Of a stretch of 64,000 bases of DNA, positions 5,260-54,881 are shown piece by piece (position 1 is the stretch's first letter; every line of letters begins with the position of its first letter). The DNA lies in contig CAZFBA010000002.1 in NCBI GenBank assembly GCA_964517135.1, positions 89,267 through 153,266 of the forward strand, given 5' to 3'. The position numbers and the translations under genes were made by a program. The DNA is from an uncultured Gammaproteobacteria bacterium (GTDB lineage: Bacteria > Cyanobacteriota > Vampirovibrionia > JBFMGH01). The notes under the pieces were generated by a model. That model saw nothing but the letters and a program-made list of their open reading frames with translations, did not search any database and was not told where the DNA came from.

Positions 5260-5997
5260 ATGCGAGATAATTCTGTTATTTATCTGTCGGTTGTTATTCC
5301 AGCTTATAATGAAGAATTAAGATTGCCTCCAACTCTTGATTCAATATTTAATTATCTTGATTTAAGAGATTATGACTATGAAGTGATTGTTGTTGATGAT
5401 GGAAGCAATGATAGTACGGTTGATATTGTAAAGCGTAATCCACGTTATGGCAGTCAGTTAAATCTTATAGAGCTTAATAATAACTATGGTAAGGGTTACA
5501 CTGTAAAAAAAGGTTTTGAAGTTGCGAAAGGCGACTATATTATTTATACTGATGCGGATGGTGCTGCTCCTATTGAAGAGTTAGAGAAGCTTTTAAAGGC
5601 TATAAATGATGGAGCTGATATTGCAATTGGTTCTCGAGCTTTAAAAGATTCTCAGGTCAAAGATCTCTGGTACAGGAGAATCATGGGTATTACTTTTAAT
5701 ACAATGATAAAGATAATAGTCATTGGTGAGTATGATGATACACAGTGTGGTTTTAAGCTTTTTAAGGCTGAATGTGCCAGAAAAATCTTTGATAAATTGA
5801 AATTAAGAGGTTTTAGTTTCGATGTAGAGTTATTATTTCTGGCTAAAAAGCTGGGTTTTAGTGTATCAGAAGTCCCTATTGTCTGGAATTCTATACCAGG
5901 AACCAAGTTAAATCTTTTAATTGATTCACCTTTGATGTTTCTGGCTGTTTTAAAAATAAGAATAATGGCTCTTCTTGGCTGGTATCGATTCAAATAG
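5260..5997 (+). CDS. GT2-family glycosyltransferase, polyprenyl- or dolichyl-phosphate sugar synthase type (DPM1 / ArnC / GtrB-like)
   Basis: The VVIPAYNEE start, the VDDGSxDxT and YTDADG (DxD) motifs, and a C-terminal membrane-association segment. Confidence 0.8.
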   Translation: MRDNSVIYLSVVIPAYNEELRLPPTLDSIFNYLDLRDYDYEVIVVDDGSNDSTVDIVKRNPRYGSQLNLIELNNNYGKGYTVKKGFEVAKGDYIIYTDADGAAPIEELEKLLKAINDGADIAIGSRALKDSQVKDLWYRRIMGITFNTMIKIIVIGEYDDTQCGFKLFKAECARKIFDKLKLRGFSFDVELLFLAKKLGFSVSEVPIVWNSIPGTKLNLLIDSPLMFLAVLKIRIMALLGWYRFK

Positions 5998-6199
5998 TGC
6001 TTTATAAAATTTTTTTATTGATTCTACTCTATTTAATTGGTTCAATTTCAGTCTATTCGTTCTAAAATTTTTGTAAGAGTCAGTATAAACCTTAATCTTT
6101 TAATATGACTAAAAAGCTTGTTAAACGGGAGATAGTGAAGAAAAAAGTTCTTTTTTGCTTTTTATATAGCTTTTATCTGCAATTCATGAGGTGTTGTTT

Positions 6200-7498
6200 A
6201 TGAAACTTGCAGTTATAGGAGGGGGTTTCTCTGGCGTTATGCTAACCAGGCTCCTTCAGGAAAAAGGATATGAATGTCACCTTTATGAAAAGGAGTCATC
6301 TTTAGGTGGTTTGTGTCGCTCAAAGCGTATTAAAAACTTTATATATGATCTTTCCGGTGGGCATATGCTCTATTCAAAGAATGAAAAGACATTAGAATAT
6401 ATTTTTAACCTTACAGGAAAAGAGAACTGGAATAAAATTTCTTGCAATGCCAGAATATACTTTGAAGGAGATTATATAAGATATCCTTTTGAGGCAGGCT
6501 TAATTGATTTGCCGAAAGAATTGCATTATGAATGTTTGCTGGGTTACATTAATGCCAGTTATGAGCGCAAATATTATCACAGGGGAGATCCAAAAAACTT
6601 CTATGACTGGCTTTTGTATATGTTTGGCAAAGGTATTTCAAGTCATTTTATGATTCCGTTTAACCAGAAAAAGTGGAATTATAACCTGAAACATATAAAT
6701 ACCGATTGGGTTGAAGACAGAGTTCCGTCAATACCTGTAGAAGAGGTTATTAAAGCCTCTATTGGTATTCATACCTCTGCTTGTACAGATAAGCTTGTAC
6801 TTTACTATCCTGAAAAAGGCGGTTTTCAGTTTCTTATTGAAAAAACAGCCTCTAATCTCAAAGATATTCATCTTTCTACACCGGTTAATGACCTTAAGAG
6901 GCAAAAGAATAAATGGATTATAAATGATACTGAGGTTTATGATGATATCATATCGACGGTTCCTTTACGTGAATTGATTCATATAATAAAAAATACACCT
7001 CCATTTGTGACGAGTACCCTTGAATCACTGTGGTATAACGGAGTTGCAACTGTCTTTGTTGGTCTTAATAAACCCTTTGAGCATAATTATAGTTGGGTTT
7101 ATCTGCCGCATAAAGAAAATGGCTTGTGTGATACTGTTACTTTTTTGTCAAATTTCAGTCAATACAATGCTCCTGCAGGGGCTGGCTCGCTTGTAGCTGA
7201 AATTACATATAAAGCCAAAACATTGCCTGAAAAATCTGAAACTCTTGTCAATACGGTTTTGAGTTCACTTGAAACCTGTAAAATTATTGATAAGAAAGAT
7301 GTTATCGTAACTGATAGCTATTTTTCTCCCTATGGATACCCTGTGTATGGCCTTAAGTATAACGAATTTAAGCAGATTATAAATAATTATCTTAATGAAG
7401 TAAGGCTAAAACGCTTTGGCAGGCTTGCTACACATTCTTACTATAACGTGGATACTATTATAGAAAAGGCGTTTGAGTTTGTTGAACAGTGGTATTAG
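6200..7498 (+). CDS. FAD/NAD(P)-binding flavoprotein resembling UDP-galactopyranose mutase (Glf / UGM)
   Basis: An N-terminal Rossmann motif (MKLAVIGGGFSGVMLTRLL..YEKxxxLGG), a GGHMLYS region and a C-terminal GRLATHSYYNVDTIIEKA, all UGM-like. The ATG at 6200 has a gaggtg RBS; the track's start at 6191 is a TTG. Confidence 0.55.
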   Translation: MKLAVIGGGFSGVMLTRLLQEKGYECHLYEKESSLGGLCRSKRIKNFIYDLSGGHMLYSKNEKTLEYIFNLTGKENWNKISCNARIYFEGDYIRYPFEAGLIDLPKELHYECLLGYINASYERKYYHRGDPKNFYDWLLYMFGKGISSHFMIPFNQKKWNYNLKHINTDWVEDRVPSIPVEEVIKASIGIHTSACTDKLVLYYPEKGGFQFLIEKTASNLKDIHLSTPVNDLKRQKNKWIINDTEVYDDIISTVPLRELIHIIKNTPPFVTSTLESLWYNGVATVFVGLNKPFEHNYSWVYLPHKENGLCDTVTFLSNFSQYNAPAGAGSLVAEITYKAKTLPEKSETLVNTVLSSLETCKIIDKKDVIVTDSYFSPYGYPVYGLKYNEFKQIINNYLNEVRLKRFGRLATHSYYNVDTIIEKAFEFVEQWY

Positions 7499-7499
7499 C

Positions 7500-9350
7500 A
7501 TGGAATTATTGCTTAAATCTCAAAAAAGAAGACTTTATATATACCTGATTATTTTAATAATCGTTTCTTCGATGGCTCTTCGTCTTTATGGTATTAATTT
7601 GAGACCAATCTTTACAGATGAAGCTGTCCATTATAATTTTATTCATCAACTCTGGGAAACTCAAAAGTATCAATATAAAGATGTTATAACTCCTGTAAGT
7701 CTGGAATTTATAAACGATGGGCTTAATCTGTATTCCTCAATAGTGTTATCACCAGATTCAGAATCTTCCCTGGAAATAAATGATACAAAATACAGGTTAT
7801 TTCTTACAAAGTCTTTGTTTCTGAAGCCGGTTAATGATGCCCTTCAGTCATATTATTATTTTAAACATATTATAAAGAATCCTGCTTATGTTTATGACCC
7901 TGTTTATCATGGGCCTTTTCTTTATTACCTGGGAGATGTGGTTTTTAACCTTGCAAATGATCATAATTTATACCTTTTAAGGTTACCTGTCGTAATATCT
8001 TCTATTCTGGCTATATTTTGTCTTTTTCTTTTTCGTGAATCTCTCGGCAAATGGGGCTTTCTATTAAGTTTGCTTCTTGTTAGTCTTTCACCTGGCCTGA
8101 TTTACTTTTCTAATCTGGCTAACTATGAGAATTATTTTGCGACCGGGTCGATACTGGGGGTCGGGTTGCTTTTGATGGGTATTAAAAAACGCAGTCCGGC
8201 TATATTGTTTAGTTCTGGATTTGTTTTGCTGGCATTGATTACCATAAAAGAAACGGCTCTTGTGACCTGGTTTGCTATTGTTGTGGCTACGATACTAACT
8301 TATATTACTCTGTATCTGCCTAAAAGACCTTCAAGATGGTTAAAAAAGCTTGAAGATATGGTGCTTAATCTGGCTGAAGGTAAGTATACTGATTCTATAT
8401 TGCGTTATTTATTGCCTGCTCTTTTGTGTTTTGCTTTGTCTGGCCTGTTTTTTGTCTTGATGTATTCTTCTTGTGGCTCTAATCCGCACGGTATTCATGA
8501 TGGCCTGACCAGCTGGATGTACTGGAAAAACACAGGTGCACAGAGTGGTCACGTTAAACCTTTTGGCTTTTATACTGATATACTGTTGACATATGATTTT
8601 ATGCTGATATTCCTGTTTTTTACCGGTGCAATTTATACGTTGTATATGACTAAAGATAAATATAAGATTTTTATTGTCTACTGGGCTCTTGTAGTATGGT
8701 TAGTGTATGCTTTTATTCCTTATAAAACACCATGGCTCATAATAAACTTCATTTATCCTTTTGCTATTGTTGCTGGCACTGGCTGGGATATGATAATTAA
8801 AAGAATGAAAAACAAGTTATACAAATACTTAATGGCATTCTTTATTGCCCTGCTTGCTATGAATACAGTTTTTATAGCTGTTAAGGTAAAGTGGATCGAT
8901 CACGATAAAGAAGCCAATAAAATGGCATATGTTCATACTTATAGAGATTTTGAAGAAGAAATTAAGGCTCTTTATAGTCTTATTCTTGCATCACCAGATG
9001 GAGATAATACAGAGATTACTGTAGCAGCTCCAGAATACTGGCCCTTGCCAGCTTACCTGCTTGATTACAGGGCTGTTGGATATTTTGGAGGAGTTAAAGG
9101 TAGGGACCTCAACACTAAAGCCCCTATTATTATAAATGATAAACGTGATAATCCCGAGCTTAGAGAGCTTTTGCTGGAGTCTGATGTCAATGATTACTTT
9201 AAACTTAGAGACTTTGAAGTGAGACCCGGTGTCATACACTCAATTTTTGTAAGCCATCAGCTAATGAAGGCTTATCTTGAATCAGGTTATTACAAACTTT
9301 TGATTTCTCCCGGGCGGAGTTATCTACTTCAAGAACCCCCCTGGGATTAA
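7500..9350 (+). CDS. GT-C fold polytopic membrane glycosyltransferase (ArnT / PMT / dolichyl-phosphate-mannose-protein mannosyltransferase-like)
   Basis: More than 10 predicted transmembrane helices. An N-terminal RLYGINLRPIFTDEAVHY loop matches the GT-C first periplasmic loop (DE motif). The ATG at 7500 begins 1 nt after the upstream gene's stop. Confidence 0.7.
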   Translation: MELLLKSQKRRLYIYLIILIIVSSMALRLYGINLRPIFTDEAVHYNFIHQLWETQKYQYKDVITPVSLEFINDGLNLYSSIVLSPDSESSLEINDTKYRLFLTKSLFLKPVNDALQSYYYFKHIIKNPAYVYDPVYHGPFLYYLGDVVFNLANDHNLYLLRLPVVISSILAIFCLFLFRESLGKWGFLLSLLLVSLSPGLIYFSNLANYENYFATGSILGVGLLLMGIKKRSPAILFSSGFVLLALITIKETALVTWFAIVVATILTYITLYLPKRPSRWLKKLEDMVLNLAEGKYTDSILRYLLPALLCFALSGLFFVLMYSSCGSNPHGIHDGLTSWMYWKNTGAQSGHVKPFGFYTDILLTYDFMLIFLFFTGAIYTLYMTKDKYKIFIVYWALVVWLVYAFIPYKTPWLIINFIYPFAIVAGTGWDMIIKRMKNKLYKYLMAFFIALLAMNTVFIAVKVKWIDHDKEANKMAYVHTYRDFEEEIKALYSLILASPDGDNTEITVAAPEYWPLPAYLLDYRAVGYFGGVKGRDLNTKAPIIINDKRDNPELRELLLESDVNDYFKLRDFEVRPGVIHSIFVSHQLMKAYLESGYYKLLISPGRSYLLQEPPWD

Positions 9351-10046
9351 TTGATTAAGACTATAAGGGTCAAGAGGATCATAAGAGGCTTTTTGCTGGC
9401 CAGGATTTAAAGACATTGCGGCTTGATTTGCACGTGATGGAGCTGTCCCCGCAAATGGACTGAAGTGCGGGCTAGTTGAATCACCTATTCTATATTCTGT
9501 ATTAAAGCTGTTTAAAGCTGGTGTTAAATTATTTTTAGTGAAAAGCGGTACCACCTTTTGTTTTACAAAATGAGAAACGAGTGGACCTGCTACAGATGCA
9601 CCAACTGCAAAGGCACAAATACTCTGGAATGGCCCTTTAAGGTTCATTAGCTTAGCAGCACCCTGCGCAGCCATACCGCTGAACCACCATGTCGCATGAT
9701 TAATAGCGGTATCTCTTTTCTCCTGTGGAGTATTTTTCTGTGCTACCTGATAAAGCCCTATCGTACCTGCAATAGCAGGTAGTAAATAATATGGAAGTAC
9801 CTTATTTAAATGCATTGTTGCTAGTGCTGCACCTCCAGCCCAGCTAACAAGAGTGTTTGTAAGTAAATCATTTCTTTTTTGCGGATCCTTCTCAGTGCCA
9901 AGCTTATAAGCCATATTGCCAATAATCAGCCCAGGCAAGACAAGTCTGCCAGGAGGTATGTTATAAAGACCTGATGCTGCCTGTCTCACTGTTTGTGAGG
10001 AGGCAGTTAATCCTGCTGCTGCTGGTATCTTGCTTACACTGACCAT
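9324..10046 (-). CDS. Hypothetical protein (240 aa), Gly/Ala-rich with possible membrane segments
   Basis: ORF with an ATG start that overlaps the 3' end of the GT-C gene convergently. No recognisable motif. Confidence 0.4.
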   Translation of the reverse strand: MVSVSKIPAAAGLTASSQTVRQAASGLYNIPPGRLVLPGLIIGNMAYKLGTEKDPQKRNDLLTNTLVSWAGGAALATMHLNKVLPYYLLPAIAGTIGLYQVAQKNTPQEKRDTAINHATWWFSGMAAQGAAKLMNLKGPFQSICAFAVGASVAGPLVSHFVKQKVVPLFTKNNLTPALNSFNTEYRIGDSTSPHFSPFAGTAPSRANQAAMSLNPGQQKASYDPLDPYSLNQLIPGGFLK

Positions 10047-10158
10047 ATGAGAGAGAATTTCCTTTTACTCGTTTCAAGTATATAATGATTGTGAAACTAA
10101 AAAATTGCGCTAAATCGTTAATTCTTACCCGTTATTTTAACTTATTTTAACATTTGTT

Positions 10159-10806
10159 ATGAAAGAAGAAGCCTCTACAAACAAAAGAGAACAGCTTGTT
10201 AAGAGCCTGAAACTTAAAGGAATCAGAGATAAAACTGTGCTGGATGCCATGATGAAAGTTCCCAGACATGCTTTTATAGATGAAAGCATCTGGATTGATC
10301 CATATGAAGATGCCCCCCAGCCAATAGGAGACGGACAGACTATATCACAACCCTATATTGTGGCTTTGATGACTGAATATTTAAAACTAAAAGGCAATGA
10401 AAGGGTTCTTGAGCTCGGTACGGGCTGTGGATATCAAACAGCCATTTTATGTGAACTGGCAGCAGAAGTTTATTCCATAGAGAGGATAAATAATTTATAC
10501 AAAAAGTCTAAAATCAATTTAGATAAATTAGGGTACTCTAATTATTATCTTAAGCAGGATGATGGTACAACAGGCTGGGCAGAAAAAGCACCTTTTGATG
10601 CAATTATTGTTACAGCAGCTTCTCCTGAAGTGCCACCACCCCTTCTGGAACAATTAAATATAAATGGCCGGCTGATTATACCTGTAGGCAAAGGCTCACC
10701 ACAGGACCTTATAGGTATTATACGGCATTCTGATGGCTATAAGAAAGAATACATATGTGGTGTCTATTTTGTTCCATTGATTGGCGAACATGCTTGGAAA
10801 AAATGA
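10159..10806 (+). CDS. pcm: Protein-L-isoaspartate O-methyltransferase
   Basis: DGQTISQPYIVALMTEYL and VLELGTGCGYQTAIL (SAM-binding motif I) are typical of PCMT. Confidence 0.9.
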   Translation: MKEEASTNKREQLVKSLKLKGIRDKTVLDAMMKVPRHAFIDESIWIDPYEDAPQPIGDGQTISQPYIVALMTEYLKLKGNERVLELGTGCGYQTAILCELAAEVYSIERINNLYKKSKINLDKLGYSNYYLKQDDGTTGWAEKAPFDAIIVTAASPEVPPPLLEQLNINGRLIIPVGKGSPQDLIGIIRHSDGYKKEYICGVYFVPLIGEHAWKK

Positions 10807-34000: not shown

Positions 34001-34074
34001 TGCGCCCGGCGGGATTTGAACCCACGACCTACGGCTTCGGAGACCGTCGCTCTATCCAACTGAGCTACAGGCGC
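34001..34074 (-). tRNA. tRNA-Arg (anticodon CCG)
   Basis: Manual cloverleaf on the reverse strand: acceptor GCGCCTG / CGGGCGC, D-arm AGCTCAGTTGGATAGAGC, anticodon loop CTCCGAA, and the GGTTCAAATCC T-loop. Confidence 0.8.
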
Positions 34075-34283: not shown

Positions 34284-34357
34284 CACCCTGGGTTGGACTC
34301 GAACCAACGACCTAACGCTTAGAAGGCGCTTGCTCTATCCACCTGAGCTACCAGGGC
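34284..34357 (-). tRNA. tRNA-Arg (anticodon TCT)
   Basis: Manual cloverleaf: acceptor GCCCTGG / CCAGGGT, D-arm GCTCAGGTGGATAGAGC, anticodon loop CTTCTAA, and the GGTTCGAGTCC T-loop. Confidence 0.75.
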
Positions 34358-46100: not shown

Positions 46101-46173
46101 GCGTCCTTAGTTCAGTTGGTAGAACGTCGGTCTCCAAAACCGAATGTCGGGGGTTCGAGTCCTCCAGGGCGCG
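46101..46173 (+). tRNA. tRNA-Trp (anticodon CCA)
   Basis: Manual cloverleaf: acceptor GCGTCCT / AGGGCGC, D-arm GTTCAGTTGGTAGAAC, anticodon stem TCGGT / ACCGA with loop CTCCAAA, and the GGTTCGAGTCC T-loop. Confidence 0.8.
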
Positions 46174-54718: not shown

Positions 54719-54881
54719 TACGCAAATAAACAGGAAAAGCCGCAGACAGCAGGTACTAAAAGTTTAATTGGTTTCCAAGCAGCCTGCCGAGGTAAATTTT
54801 AAAATTTAATCCTTGAATTCTGTGTTTCTGTGAGCTTTTCTTTTCACAGAAATTTTTTATGAAAGGAGGGTGATTAGCTGA

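Follow-up and report, generated by a model that had tools for sequence, protein, structure and literature searches.

Galactofuranose (Galf) is absent from mammals and is a target for drugs and vaccines. In every Galf pathway described to our knowledge, Leloir enzymes of the cytoplasm or Golgi use UDP-Galf directly to add the sugar, and the only furanose donors linked to a lipid monophosphate that we know of carry pentoses (arabinose, ribose, and xylose) originating from phosphoribosyl pyrophosphate (PRPP). Here we describe three genes at positions 5260–9350 of a 64,000-nucleotide stretch of DNA (contig CAZFBA010000002.1, positions 89,267 to 153,266; the whole stretch is referred to below as the window) from a member of the Vampirovibrionia, which are non-photosynthetic relatives of cyanobacteria. 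They encode a family 2 glycosyltransferase (GT2), a flavin adenine dinucleotide (FAD) flavoprotein related to UDP-galactopyranose mutase (UGM), and a membrane protein with a glycosyltransferase C (GT-C) fold. The original prediction was that these make a UDP-furanose, load it onto polyprenyl phosphate, and transfer it to an acceptor. We find that the flavoprotein belongs to a prokaryotic sister family of the eukaryote-type UGM, and that its substrate pocket is remodelled.

Several described systems are close to this arrangement. The Gtr-type three-component systems consist of a GT2 (GtrB, CsbB, or GtlA), a flippase (GtrA or GtcA), and a GT-C protein (GtrX, YfhO, or ArnT). In the glf-glfT2 and glf-wbbI pairs, the mutases belong to Pfam GLF and the GT2s act on glycan acceptors at the soluble face. 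The pentofuranose three-component systems (Kelly et al., 2024; PMC11127046), like mycobacterial decaprenyl-P-arabinofuranose with the Emb and Aft enzymes, make the furanose from PRPP via a UbiA-type phosphoribosyltransferase, a phosphatase and epimerases; a MATE protein serves as flippase, and the transferases belong to families GT136, GT53, and GT85. Hexofuranoses and Galf are not mentioned by Kelly et al. (PMC11127046). In Haloarcula hispanica, the GT2 Agl22 makes Glc/Gal-P-dolichol, and Agl23, the studied member of TIGR03663 and the protein for which that family is now named, is regarded as a putative flippase for this lipid; in liposomes, the purified protein translocated M5GN2-PP-lipid (work cited in PMC11182771).

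The flavoprotein is related to eukaryote-type UGM

The flavoprotein gene runs from ATG 6200 to 7498 on the + strand and encodes 432 residues. In single-sequence phmmer searches against PDB chains, the protein matches Trypanosoma cruzi UGM (TcUGM) at 6e-32 over residues 2–386 and Aspergillus fumigatus UGM (AfUGM) at 1e-22, whereas amine oxidases and protoporphyrinogen oxidase (PPO) match only its N-terminal Rossmann part, at 1e-3 or worse (amine oxidases over residues 2–57). A profile of 48 family sequences matches TcUGM (4dsg) over its full length with 312 bits (6e-92) and AfUGM with 302 bits, compared with 79 bits (4e-21) for PPO. The AlphaFold2 (AF2) model is confident (predicted local distance difference test score, pLDDT, 93.9), and in Foldseek it superimposes on AfUGM and TcUGM with a template modelling score (TMq) of 0.89–0.91 and a root mean square deviation (rmsd) of 2.6–2.9 Å, as against about 0.8 and about 5 Å for PPO. 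Model, Foldseek, and profile together indicate that the three-domain UGM fold is present, with its FAD Rossmann domain. No transmembrane (TM) segment was found in a Kyte–Doolittle (KD) scan.

The likeness to Glf/UGM claimed in the original prediction therefore stands as regards UGM, but the type is eukaryotic. The bacterial Glf family was ruled out, there being no match to Pfam GLF (PF03275) and a TIGR00031 score of 41.3 bits against a cut-off of 303.75. The only Pfam matches are Amino_oxidase (3e-19) and NAD_binding_8, and the JGI name is protoporphyrinogen oxidase. Amine oxidase, PPO, and CrtI families, a better fit to which had been named as the outcome that would count against UGM, were ruled out by the profile and the fold, and score 20.8 bits against 97.85 for TIGR00562 and 26 against 238 for crtI_fam.

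The motifs quoted originally are all present, namely the Rossmann GGGFSG (residues 7–12), GGH (53–55), and GRLATHSYYNVD (407–418) in this protein, DAD in the GT2, and FTDEAVHY in the GT-C protein. The mobile-loop arginine is kept as Arg174, in the sequence WVEDRVP (R182 in AfUGM, R174 in KpUGM). The flavin and sugar site is likewise kept, with H55, Y380, R408, Y414, and N416 at the positions of AfUGM H63, Y419, R447, Y453, and N457, and Y95, F97, N155, W159, W299, and Y301 complete the set of retained pocket residues. On both sequence and modelled structure, the flavoprotein is a member of a prokaryotic sister family of eukaryote-type UGM.

Remodelling of the substrate pocket

One position of the pocket is lost that every studied UGM conserves. 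In two independent alignments (phmmer to AfUGM, and a MAFFT alignment of the family), Thr312 takes the position of AfUGM R327, equivalent to R280 in KpUGM and R305 in DrUGM, and the protein is therefore without this catalytic arginine. R327 of AfUGM is strictly conserved among UGMs and contacts O5 of galactose and the β-phosphate; the R327A mutant is inactive and R327K turns over at 7.5 rather than 523 min−1, or about 1.4% of kcat (PMC3322874). Flap II and its stabilizer (R91, P206, and N207 in AfUGM) are not kept either, and are replaced by Cys82, Asp197, and Lys198, where the family consensus is R, H, and Q.

To place these changes on a scale, 56 invariant columns were defined from 17 relatives that keep the arginine (bacterial and probably archaeal proteins with 32%–63% identity to that of the window). 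Of these 56, the window protein alters 12, while the 17 relatives, each left out in turn, alter 0–3. The altered columns are L6I, G46N, R82C, N99A, Y154F, E193S, G194A, H197D, Q198K, F201L, R312T, and F409L, of which at least nine fall in substrate-binding elements named in the AfUGM study (PMC3322874). Among the nine, R82C is at R91, N99A adjoins Q107, Y154F is at Y162, R312T is at R327, and the changes E193S, G194A, H197D, Q198K, and F201L lie in flap II, including the P206 and N207 positions. In addition, F409L adjoins R447. The remodelled pocket residues are Cys82, Ala99, Phe154, Ser193-Ala194, Asp197-Lys198, Leu201, and Thr312. The His loop is unaltered, as are R408 and the motifs GxGxxG and GGL.

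The loss is shared with six close Vampirovibrionia relatives (flavoproteins are given P numbers, and loci L numbers), which have Thr or Ser (P0002, P0003, P0012) or Cys (P0008, P0009, P0013) at this position; R182 is also lost in P0008, P0009, P0012, and P0013. In a neighbour-joining tree the Arg-less proteins group together, and P0004 and P0007, which keep the arginine, fall in the same unresolved group. The series of residues is consistent with a drift from R to C to S/T after one loss.

All seven Arg-less proteins are intact at 432 residues, and the three-gene context is kept (L093, L094). Between the window and the genome of P0002 it is the flavoprotein that is best conserved (69% identity, the GT2 reaching 64% and the GT-C protein 60%), and the new residues Ala99, Ala194, and Lys/Arg198 are conserved within the P0001–3 clade. 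Basic residues have been gained in the pocket repeatedly, as Q198K/R in P0001–3 and P0009 and as W299R in P0012, at positions that are never basic in 89 other loci. The AfUGM equivalent of 198, N207, is 3.5 Å from O4 of galactose, and that of 299, W315, stacks on R327 (PMC3322874). The partner GT-C proteins and the window GT2 show no comparable excess of change, and their changes are mostly conservative; the GT2s of some other Arg-less genomes show a mild excess. There is no clear excess of correlated remodelling in the GT2s or GT-C proteins of the Arg-less genomes.

A decaying pseudoenzyme is less likely, given the intact length, the higher conservation than that of the neighbours, and the repeated basic gains. 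The flavoprotein is probably still functional, as a remodelled derivative under purifying selection with a substrate or activity unlike that of canonical UGM, and the changes may be read as having moved a positive charge to a new place and altered the sugar site of an enzyme that is still selected. Canonical UDP-Galf synthesis in this organism is doubtful. With R327 replaced by Thr312, R91 by Cys82, Y162 by Phe154, and flap II replaced, production of UDP-Galf or UDP-Araf, as originally proposed, cannot be assumed and is not claimed here. The proposed check of the substrate-binding residues has in this way given a divided answer, with H55, R174, Y380, R408, Y414, and N416 kept, and R327, R91, and flap II lost.

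The most diverged Arg-less relative is P0012 (L094, 4001–5299), in which the equivalents of N163, W167, R182, W315, and Y453 are also lost and 15 of the 56 columns are changed. It is nevertheless intact and lies within the same trio, and may have acquired another function or be on the way to being lost.

The prokaryotic family and its gene neighbours

A search with a 17-sequence flavoprotein alignment against the GTDB species-representative genomes found at least 568 stretches carrying a member of the UGM-like family, mostly in Planctomycetota, Methanomicrobiales, Methanophagales, and Thermoplasmata. We found no report in the literature on prokaryotic homologues of eukaryotic UGM. The active-site residues listed for AfUGM (PMC3322874, Table 2) were followed through 89 family loci other than the window. 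R327, N163, W167, Y419, R447, and E373 are conserved in 89 of 89, R91 in 85 of 85, Y162 and Y453 in 88 of 89, and R182 in 86 of 89. The prokaryotic family therefore keeps a near-complete AfUGM active site, including the W315/Y317 pair that is specific to eukaryotes, and as a whole is most simply regarded as a sugar-nucleotide pyranose/furanose mutase.

Neighbours were classified by Pfam and NCBIfam scans of chosen neighbourhoods. In the annotated neighbourhoods the usual companion of the UGM-like gene is a GT2, of variable kind. In Planctomycetota and methanogens it is HpnB/CruG-like or TIGR04283/EpsD/MftF-like, as expected for Leloir Galf-transferases, and a more distant flavoprotein clade lies within Wzm/Wzt or GT4 polysaccharide clusters. 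The large open reading frames (ORFs) 3′ of the flavoprotein-GT2 pairs in Planctomycetota were considered as GT-C proteins and rejected, since they encode histidine kinases, lactonases, sulfatases, and similar proteins. In L051, an example from some Planctomycetota, an HpnB/CruG-like GT2 (9296–10441, +; HpnB 202 bits, CruG 159) follows the mutase-like gene (8001–9290). The HpnB/CruG-like partners in some Planctomycetota hint at furanosylation of hopanoid- or carotenoid-type lipids.

In three further lineages, the UGM-like gene is accompanied by a GT2 of the polyprenyl-phosphate kind, a GT-C protein, and a flippase candidate. Syntrophorhabdus (L005/L006) has a GT-C protein, a GT2 resembling Dol-P-hexose transferases (Dol-P, dolichyl phosphate; 198 bits), the flavoprotein, and GtrA, with gaps of 0–81 nucleotides. 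A member of the Desulfarculaceae (Desulfobacterota, L004) has PMT_2, a GT2, LPG_synthase_TM, an epimerase, a nucleotidyltransferase, and the flavoprotein. In a Thermoplasmatales archaeon (L063, 1309–6083, +), a PMT_2-like GT-C protein, the flavoprotein, an ArnC/AglJ-type GT2, and LPG_synthase_TM are found, in an order different from that of the bacterial module. The GT-C proteins of L004, L005/L006, and L063 are not TIGR03663 proteins, and the GT2s of L004 and L005 were not detected with the window GT2 as phmmer query at E<1e-5. More generally, single-sequence phmmer and hidden Markov model (HMM) seeds missed most partner GT2s and GT-C proteins across the loci, because these are not orthologous. 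Since the GT2 and GT-C subtypes differ between lineages, the clusters were assembled independently, which makes them good comparative evidence for a shared pathway. The functional link between a UGM-like gene, a polyprenyl-phosphate GT2, and a GT-C protein is therefore borne out by the independent clusters in Desulfobacterota and the Thermoplasmatales archaeon.

At the level of the family, this comparison lends support to a lipid-linked furanose route, and the simplest shared pathway would be from UDP-Galp to UDP-Galf and on to polyprenyl-P-Galf, followed by transfer by the GT-C protein. We found no report in the literature of Galf linked to undecaprenyl phosphate or Dol-P, or of a GT-C galactofuranosyltransferase. 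Beside the cluster in L005 (5364–9809, −) there is a transaldolase-like gene with HAD, SIS, nucleotidyltransferase, GHMP-kinase, and epimerase genes, a set that resembles a nucleotide-heptose pathway.

The GT2

The first gene of the trio (5260–5997, +) encodes a GT2 of 245 residues resembling ALG5, DPM1, and GtrB, with a Pfam Glycos_transf_2 match at 1.7e-35. Among solved structures its best relatives are the Dol-P mannose synthase (DPMS) of Pyrococcus furiosus (5mlz, 5e-19), ArnC (9hwj, 3e-17, with other ArnC matches ranging to 1e-15), and GtrB (5ekp, 9e-15), in good agreement with the DPM1/ArnC likeness noted originally. Polyprenyl-phosphate sugar synthases thus rank above glycan-acting Leloir GT2s, and the order of the NCBIfam models agrees, with ArnC, AglJ, PgfS, Dol-P-hexose transferase, and PpgS at the top. 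All NCBIfam scores are far under the cut-offs (80.6 bits against 529 for ArnC), so that the protein belongs to no specific equivalog. It and its relatives, of which more than 7312 score below 1e-30, carry the NCBI and JGI name dolichyl-phosphate β-glucosyltransferase.

The motifs DADG[AS]xP, DTQCGFK, and FSFDVE are invariant, also in the window copy, where the DxD motif is DAD (residues 98–100). The ALG5-like family as a whole has DADG[AS][TSA]P, which we take to be the ALG5 motif. The window copy reads DADGAAP, and is without the Gln of DADxQx, the signature of DPMS and GtrB (PMC9943897). A single hydrophobic 19-mer at the C-terminus (residues 219–237) could form a helix that anchors the enzyme to the membrane. 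The protein is predicted to be a polyprenyl-phosphate hexose synthase.

In other phyla, relatives with about 50% identity adjoin a PMT_2 GT-C protein (Geobacter, L090) or LPG_synthase_TM (L091, L092), and in none of these three loci is there a flavoprotein neighbour. A GT2 with a GT-C protein or flippase is therefore a generic module, to which the flavoprotein is a special addition.

The GT-C membrane protein

The third gene (ATG 7500 to 9350, +) encodes 616 residues and scores 174 bits against NCBIfam TIGR03663 (Agl23; cut-off 126.25), a label that its relatives also carry at NCBI and JGI. In the suggested HMM assignments, Glycos_transf_2 and NAD_binding_8 were matched and GLF was not, and PMT_2 falls just under its threshold here (25.8 against 26.1). 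No sequence match was found in the PDB. The AF2 model (pLDDT 86) has 16 significant Foldseek matches in the PDB, all 16 of which are GT-C enzymes (ALG12, AglB, STT3, ALG9, ArnT, and Pmt4), with modest TMq values of 0.40–0.50. There are 10 strongly hydrophobic 19-mers and further helices in the model, giving about 11–13 TM helices, a range that includes the 12 originally counted.

Directly after TM1, in the first outer loop, the protein has Asp40-Glu41 within the sequence FTDEAVHY. This pair does not vary among 37 diverse homologues, nor among 17 orthologues from Vampirovibrionia, so the loss of an Asp/Glu loop that would have spoken against the proposed activity is not seen. Other residues invariant in the 37 sequences are Y136-H-G-P139 (YxxxYHGP), K250-E-T252, and Y408-K-T-P-W412. 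A soluble C-terminal domain of mixed α/β structure covers approximately residues 480–600. The proposed ArnT/PMT likeness is thus correct for the fold and the acidic pair, but the family is that of TIGR03663/Agl23 rather than ArnT or PMT. No homologue of GtrA, LPG_synthase_TM, or YfhO was found among the window ORFs, nor any MprF-type flippase gene nearby.

The locus and its surroundings

All three genes lie on the + strand, exactly at the coordinates first given. The tight packing ascribed to them applies to the flavoprotein and GT-C genes, which meet at TAG-C-ATG with the predicted single nucleotide between stop and start; to judge from this junction, the GT-C start is translationally coupled to the flavoprotein stop. 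It does not apply to the GT2 and flavoprotein genes, which are separated by an AT-rich spacer of 202 nucleotides (5998–6199), compared with 98–164 nucleotides in relatives. No Rfam family reaches gathering score in the spacer, which also lacks a terminator-like hairpin and any strong promoter match on the + strand. The flavoprotein ATG is preceded at 8 nucleotides by a GAGG Shine–Dalgarno sequence; the mechanical ORF begins at GTG 6191.

Upstream are rplU and rpmA on the minus strand, and downstream come a minus-strand ORF that could be assigned to no family and then a PCMT-type methyltransferase. The trio is kept between rplU-rpmA and the methyltransferase in L001/L002/L010, L093, and L094, and since the position is the same in relatives at 56%–69% flavoprotein identity, the arrangement is conserved and not due to chance. 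Proteins identical to those of the window are present in public assemblies, and close relatives are named as Vampirovibrionia/Cyanobacteriota metagenome-assembled genomes.

Some further features of the window were noted. The rplU gene (ribosomal protein L21; 4391–5062, −) encodes 223 residues, with a C-terminal tail of about 120 residues rich in Lys, Glu, and Thr; tail lengths vary among the orthologues (205, 216, and 153 residues in L002, L093, and L094). The downstream ORF (9324–10046, −; 240 residues) points towards the GT-C gene and shares 27 nucleotides with the 3′ end of that gene, and the orthologues of this ORF in L001, L093, and L094 occupy the same place and likewise have no Pfam match. 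At Rfam gathering score, the whole window contains a ribosomal protein L10 leader (54722–54867, +) and three tRNA genes (34001–34074, −; 34284–34357, −; 46101–46173, +), and no other RNA family.

Proposed mechanism and alternatives

Taken as a whole, the best explanation of positions 5260–9350, held with about even confidence, is a module for glycosylation outside the cytoplasm that depends on a lipid carrier and contains a remodelled descendant of a mutase. By homology, the ALG5/GtrB-type GT2 would move one hexose from a UDP-sugar onto polyprenyl phosphate at the cytoplasmic face. The TIGR03663/Agl23-type GT-C protein would then take the lipid-linked sugar at the outer face and transfer it to an acceptor by means of its Asp-Glu loop, and it may also help to translocate the sugar, since a flippase gene of GtrA or MprF type is missing from the surroundings. 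The middle gene descends, on the evidence of both sequence and fold, from the eukaryote-type UGM family, relatives in which keep the full catalytic set. Because these relatives also recur beside polyprenyl-phosphate GT2s, GT-C proteins, and flippase candidates, it is most likely that the ancestral module provided a UDP-hexofuranose (Galf), which would have been loaded as polyprenyl-P-Galf and transferred outside the cell. Here and in the six close relatives the pocket has been rebuilt, with Lys198 new at a position of sugar contact in AfUGM, while FAD-binding, uridine-binding, and Tyr/Arg residues are retained.

Several observations weigh against this explanation. The catalytic motifs of the GT2 are identical to those of relatives with no mutase neighbour, so that nothing points to a donor site specific for furanoses. 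For the one studied member of TIGR03663, the role described is that of a flippase and not of a transferase (PMC11182771). In most genomes (Planctomycetota and methanogens) the partner of the UGM-like gene is a GT2 of another kind and no GT-C gene is nearby, so that only a minority of the mutases would serve the lipid-linked route, if it is real. Because the R327A mutant of AfUGM is inactive, the flavoprotein may have no mutase activity at all. Finally, throughout the prokaryotic family, the transferred sugar, the donor of the GT2, and the acceptor of the GT-C protein are all inferred.

Among the alternatives, the one that survives best is that the TIGR03663 protein acts only as an Agl23-like flippase of lipid-linked sugars, so that it and the GT2 feed outer-face transferases encoded elsewhere. 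The score above the TIGR03663 cut-off fits this, as does the account of H. hispanica Agl23 as a hexose-P-Dol flippase that translocated M5GN2-PP-lipid (PMC11182771), and the window has no GtrA or LPG_synthase_TM gene. The GT-C fold, the invariant Asp-Glu after TM1, and the other invariant polar motifs are however those of catalytic GT-C proteins, and the analogous clusters of other phyla put PMT_2-type GT-C proteins in the same slot and have a separate flippase candidate. We therefore consider a purely flipping role possible but doubtful.

Next in order is loss of catalysis, the flavoprotein having become a non-catalytic structural or regulatory partner of a module that delivers a pyranose (Glc or Gal) in the manner of Haloarcula Agl22/Agl23. 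R327 and R91 are gone, and R182 as well in P0008, P0009, P0012, and P0013; the GT2 is named as a Dol-P β-glucosyltransferase, its 50% relatives manage without a mutase neighbour, and the GT-C protein is Agl23-like. Yet conservation of the flavoprotein in the Arg-less clade equals or exceeds that of its neighbours (69% against 64% and 60%), its FAD- and uridine-site residues are kept, and the repeated basic gains suggest continued binding of an anionic substrate. This makes a non-catalytic partner rather improbable.

An active UDP-Galp or UDP-Arap mutase in this organism, with the GT2 making polyprenyl-P-Galf and the GT-C protein adding Galf to a surface acceptor, is unlikely. It would account for the UGM fold and most of the pocket residues being kept, the synteny backs a functional link, and Lys198 could conceivably stand in part for the lost arginine. 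Against this, Thr312 replaces an arginine strictly conserved in every studied UGM, whose replacement by Ala inactivates the enzyme and by Lys leaves 1.4% of kcat; R91 has become Cys, flap II is replaced, and the protein is an outlier against 89 loci that all have the arginine.

It is very unlikely that the flavoprotein acts after the GT2, converting polyprenyl-P-galactopyranose to the furanose on the lipid, a monophosphate substrate that would explain the lost diphosphate-binding arginines (R327 and, in some relatives, R182) and the gene position between the synthase and the user of the lipid-linked sugar, since the uridine-binding residues Y95, F97, N155, and W159 are conserved, neither a hydrophobic segment nor a groove is evident, the C1 phosphate would still need stabilizing, and relatives that keep the arginine occur in the same context. 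That it is an ordinary oxidoreductase of the amine oxidase, PPO, or phytoene-desaturase type, with no sugar chemistry, as the Amino_oxidase match, the JGI and most other database names, and the TMq of about 0.8 with PPO might suggest, is hardly tenable when the profile gives 312 bits on TcUGM and 79 on PPO, amine oxidases match only the Rossmann part, UGM-specific residues are found family-wide, and the gene neighbours are glycosyltransferases.

The remodelled module can be extended to a bolder proposal, which we offer only tentatively. This is that Bacteria and Archaea have a new three-component kind of system, in which the UDP-Galf used by a polyprenyl-phosphate GT2 comes from a eukaryote-type UGM and a GT-C protein uses the polyprenyl-P-Galf outside the cell; in the Vampirovibrionia lineage of the window the mutase would have been re-tooled for a changed substrate, its catalytic Arg relocated to Lys198, and the Agl23-type GT-C protein would both flip and transfer. 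If true, polyprenyl-P-galactofuranose would be a lipid-linked hexofuranose donor of a kind that we did not find in the searchable literature, and its user the first GT-C galactofuranosyltransferase. A mutase-fed polyprenyl-P-hexofuranose route would also extend the concept of lipid-linked furanoses to hexoses, and give GT-C proteins a new class of donor. The large sister family in Planctomycetota, methanogens, and Thermoplasmata is relevant to how eukaryotic UGM originated, and the data also touch on the question of whether TIGR03663/Agl23 proteins flip, transfer, or do both. The Arg-less clade, with its gene still under selection, is a natural experiment in UGM catalysis.

Comparison with known systems

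The flavoprotein shares with eukaryotic UGM (A. fumigatus, T. cruzi, and Leishmania; 3ute, 3ukh, 4dsg) the three-domain fold (TMq 0.9), the GGH histidine loop, the YPF and PxNxKxW motifs of the uridine site, the W315/Y317 pair, and equivalents of R182, Y419, R447, Y453, and N457. It differs in having only about 22%–24% identity, in its length of 432 rather than 480–510 residues, without the eukaryotic inserts, and in the replacement of R327 by Thr, R91 by Cys, N207 by Lys, Y162 by Phe, and Q107 by Glu. Its host is bacterial, and its gene lies between those of a polyprenyl-phosphate GT2 and a GT-C protein.

In the glf-glfT2 and glf-wbbI pairs, as here, the mutase gene adjoins that of a GT2 that would use its product, and this logic is probably also that of the Planctomycetota and methanogen loci of the UGM-like family. 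In the window, by contrast, the GT2 is of the polyprenyl-phosphate monosaccharide synthase kind, and a GT-C protein follows. With the pentofuranose and mycobacterial systems, the locus shares the concept of a furanose on polyprenyl monophosphate and its addition by a GT-C protein outside the cytoplasm, but here a flavin mutase working on a UDP-hexose is the candidate furanose source, and a GT2 would load the lipid.

As in H. hispanica Agl22/Agl23, the GT-C protein passes the TIGR03663 cut-off and is paired with a GT2 resembling Dol-P-hexose synthases. The window module is however bacterial, distant from the archaeal members (as compared through the TIGR03663 model), and has a UGM-like gene between the two. 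As in the Gtr-type systems, a polyprenyl-phosphate GT2 adjoins a GT-C protein, and the relatives of the module extend the parallel, with GtrA in L005 and LPG_synthase_TM in L004 and L063. The window differs in having no small flippase gene, a GT-C protein of TIGR03663, and within the operon a mutase homologue, which is not found in the described systems. It is concluded that the module is a variant of the known three-component glycosylation systems of the Gtr and Agl22/Agl23 type.

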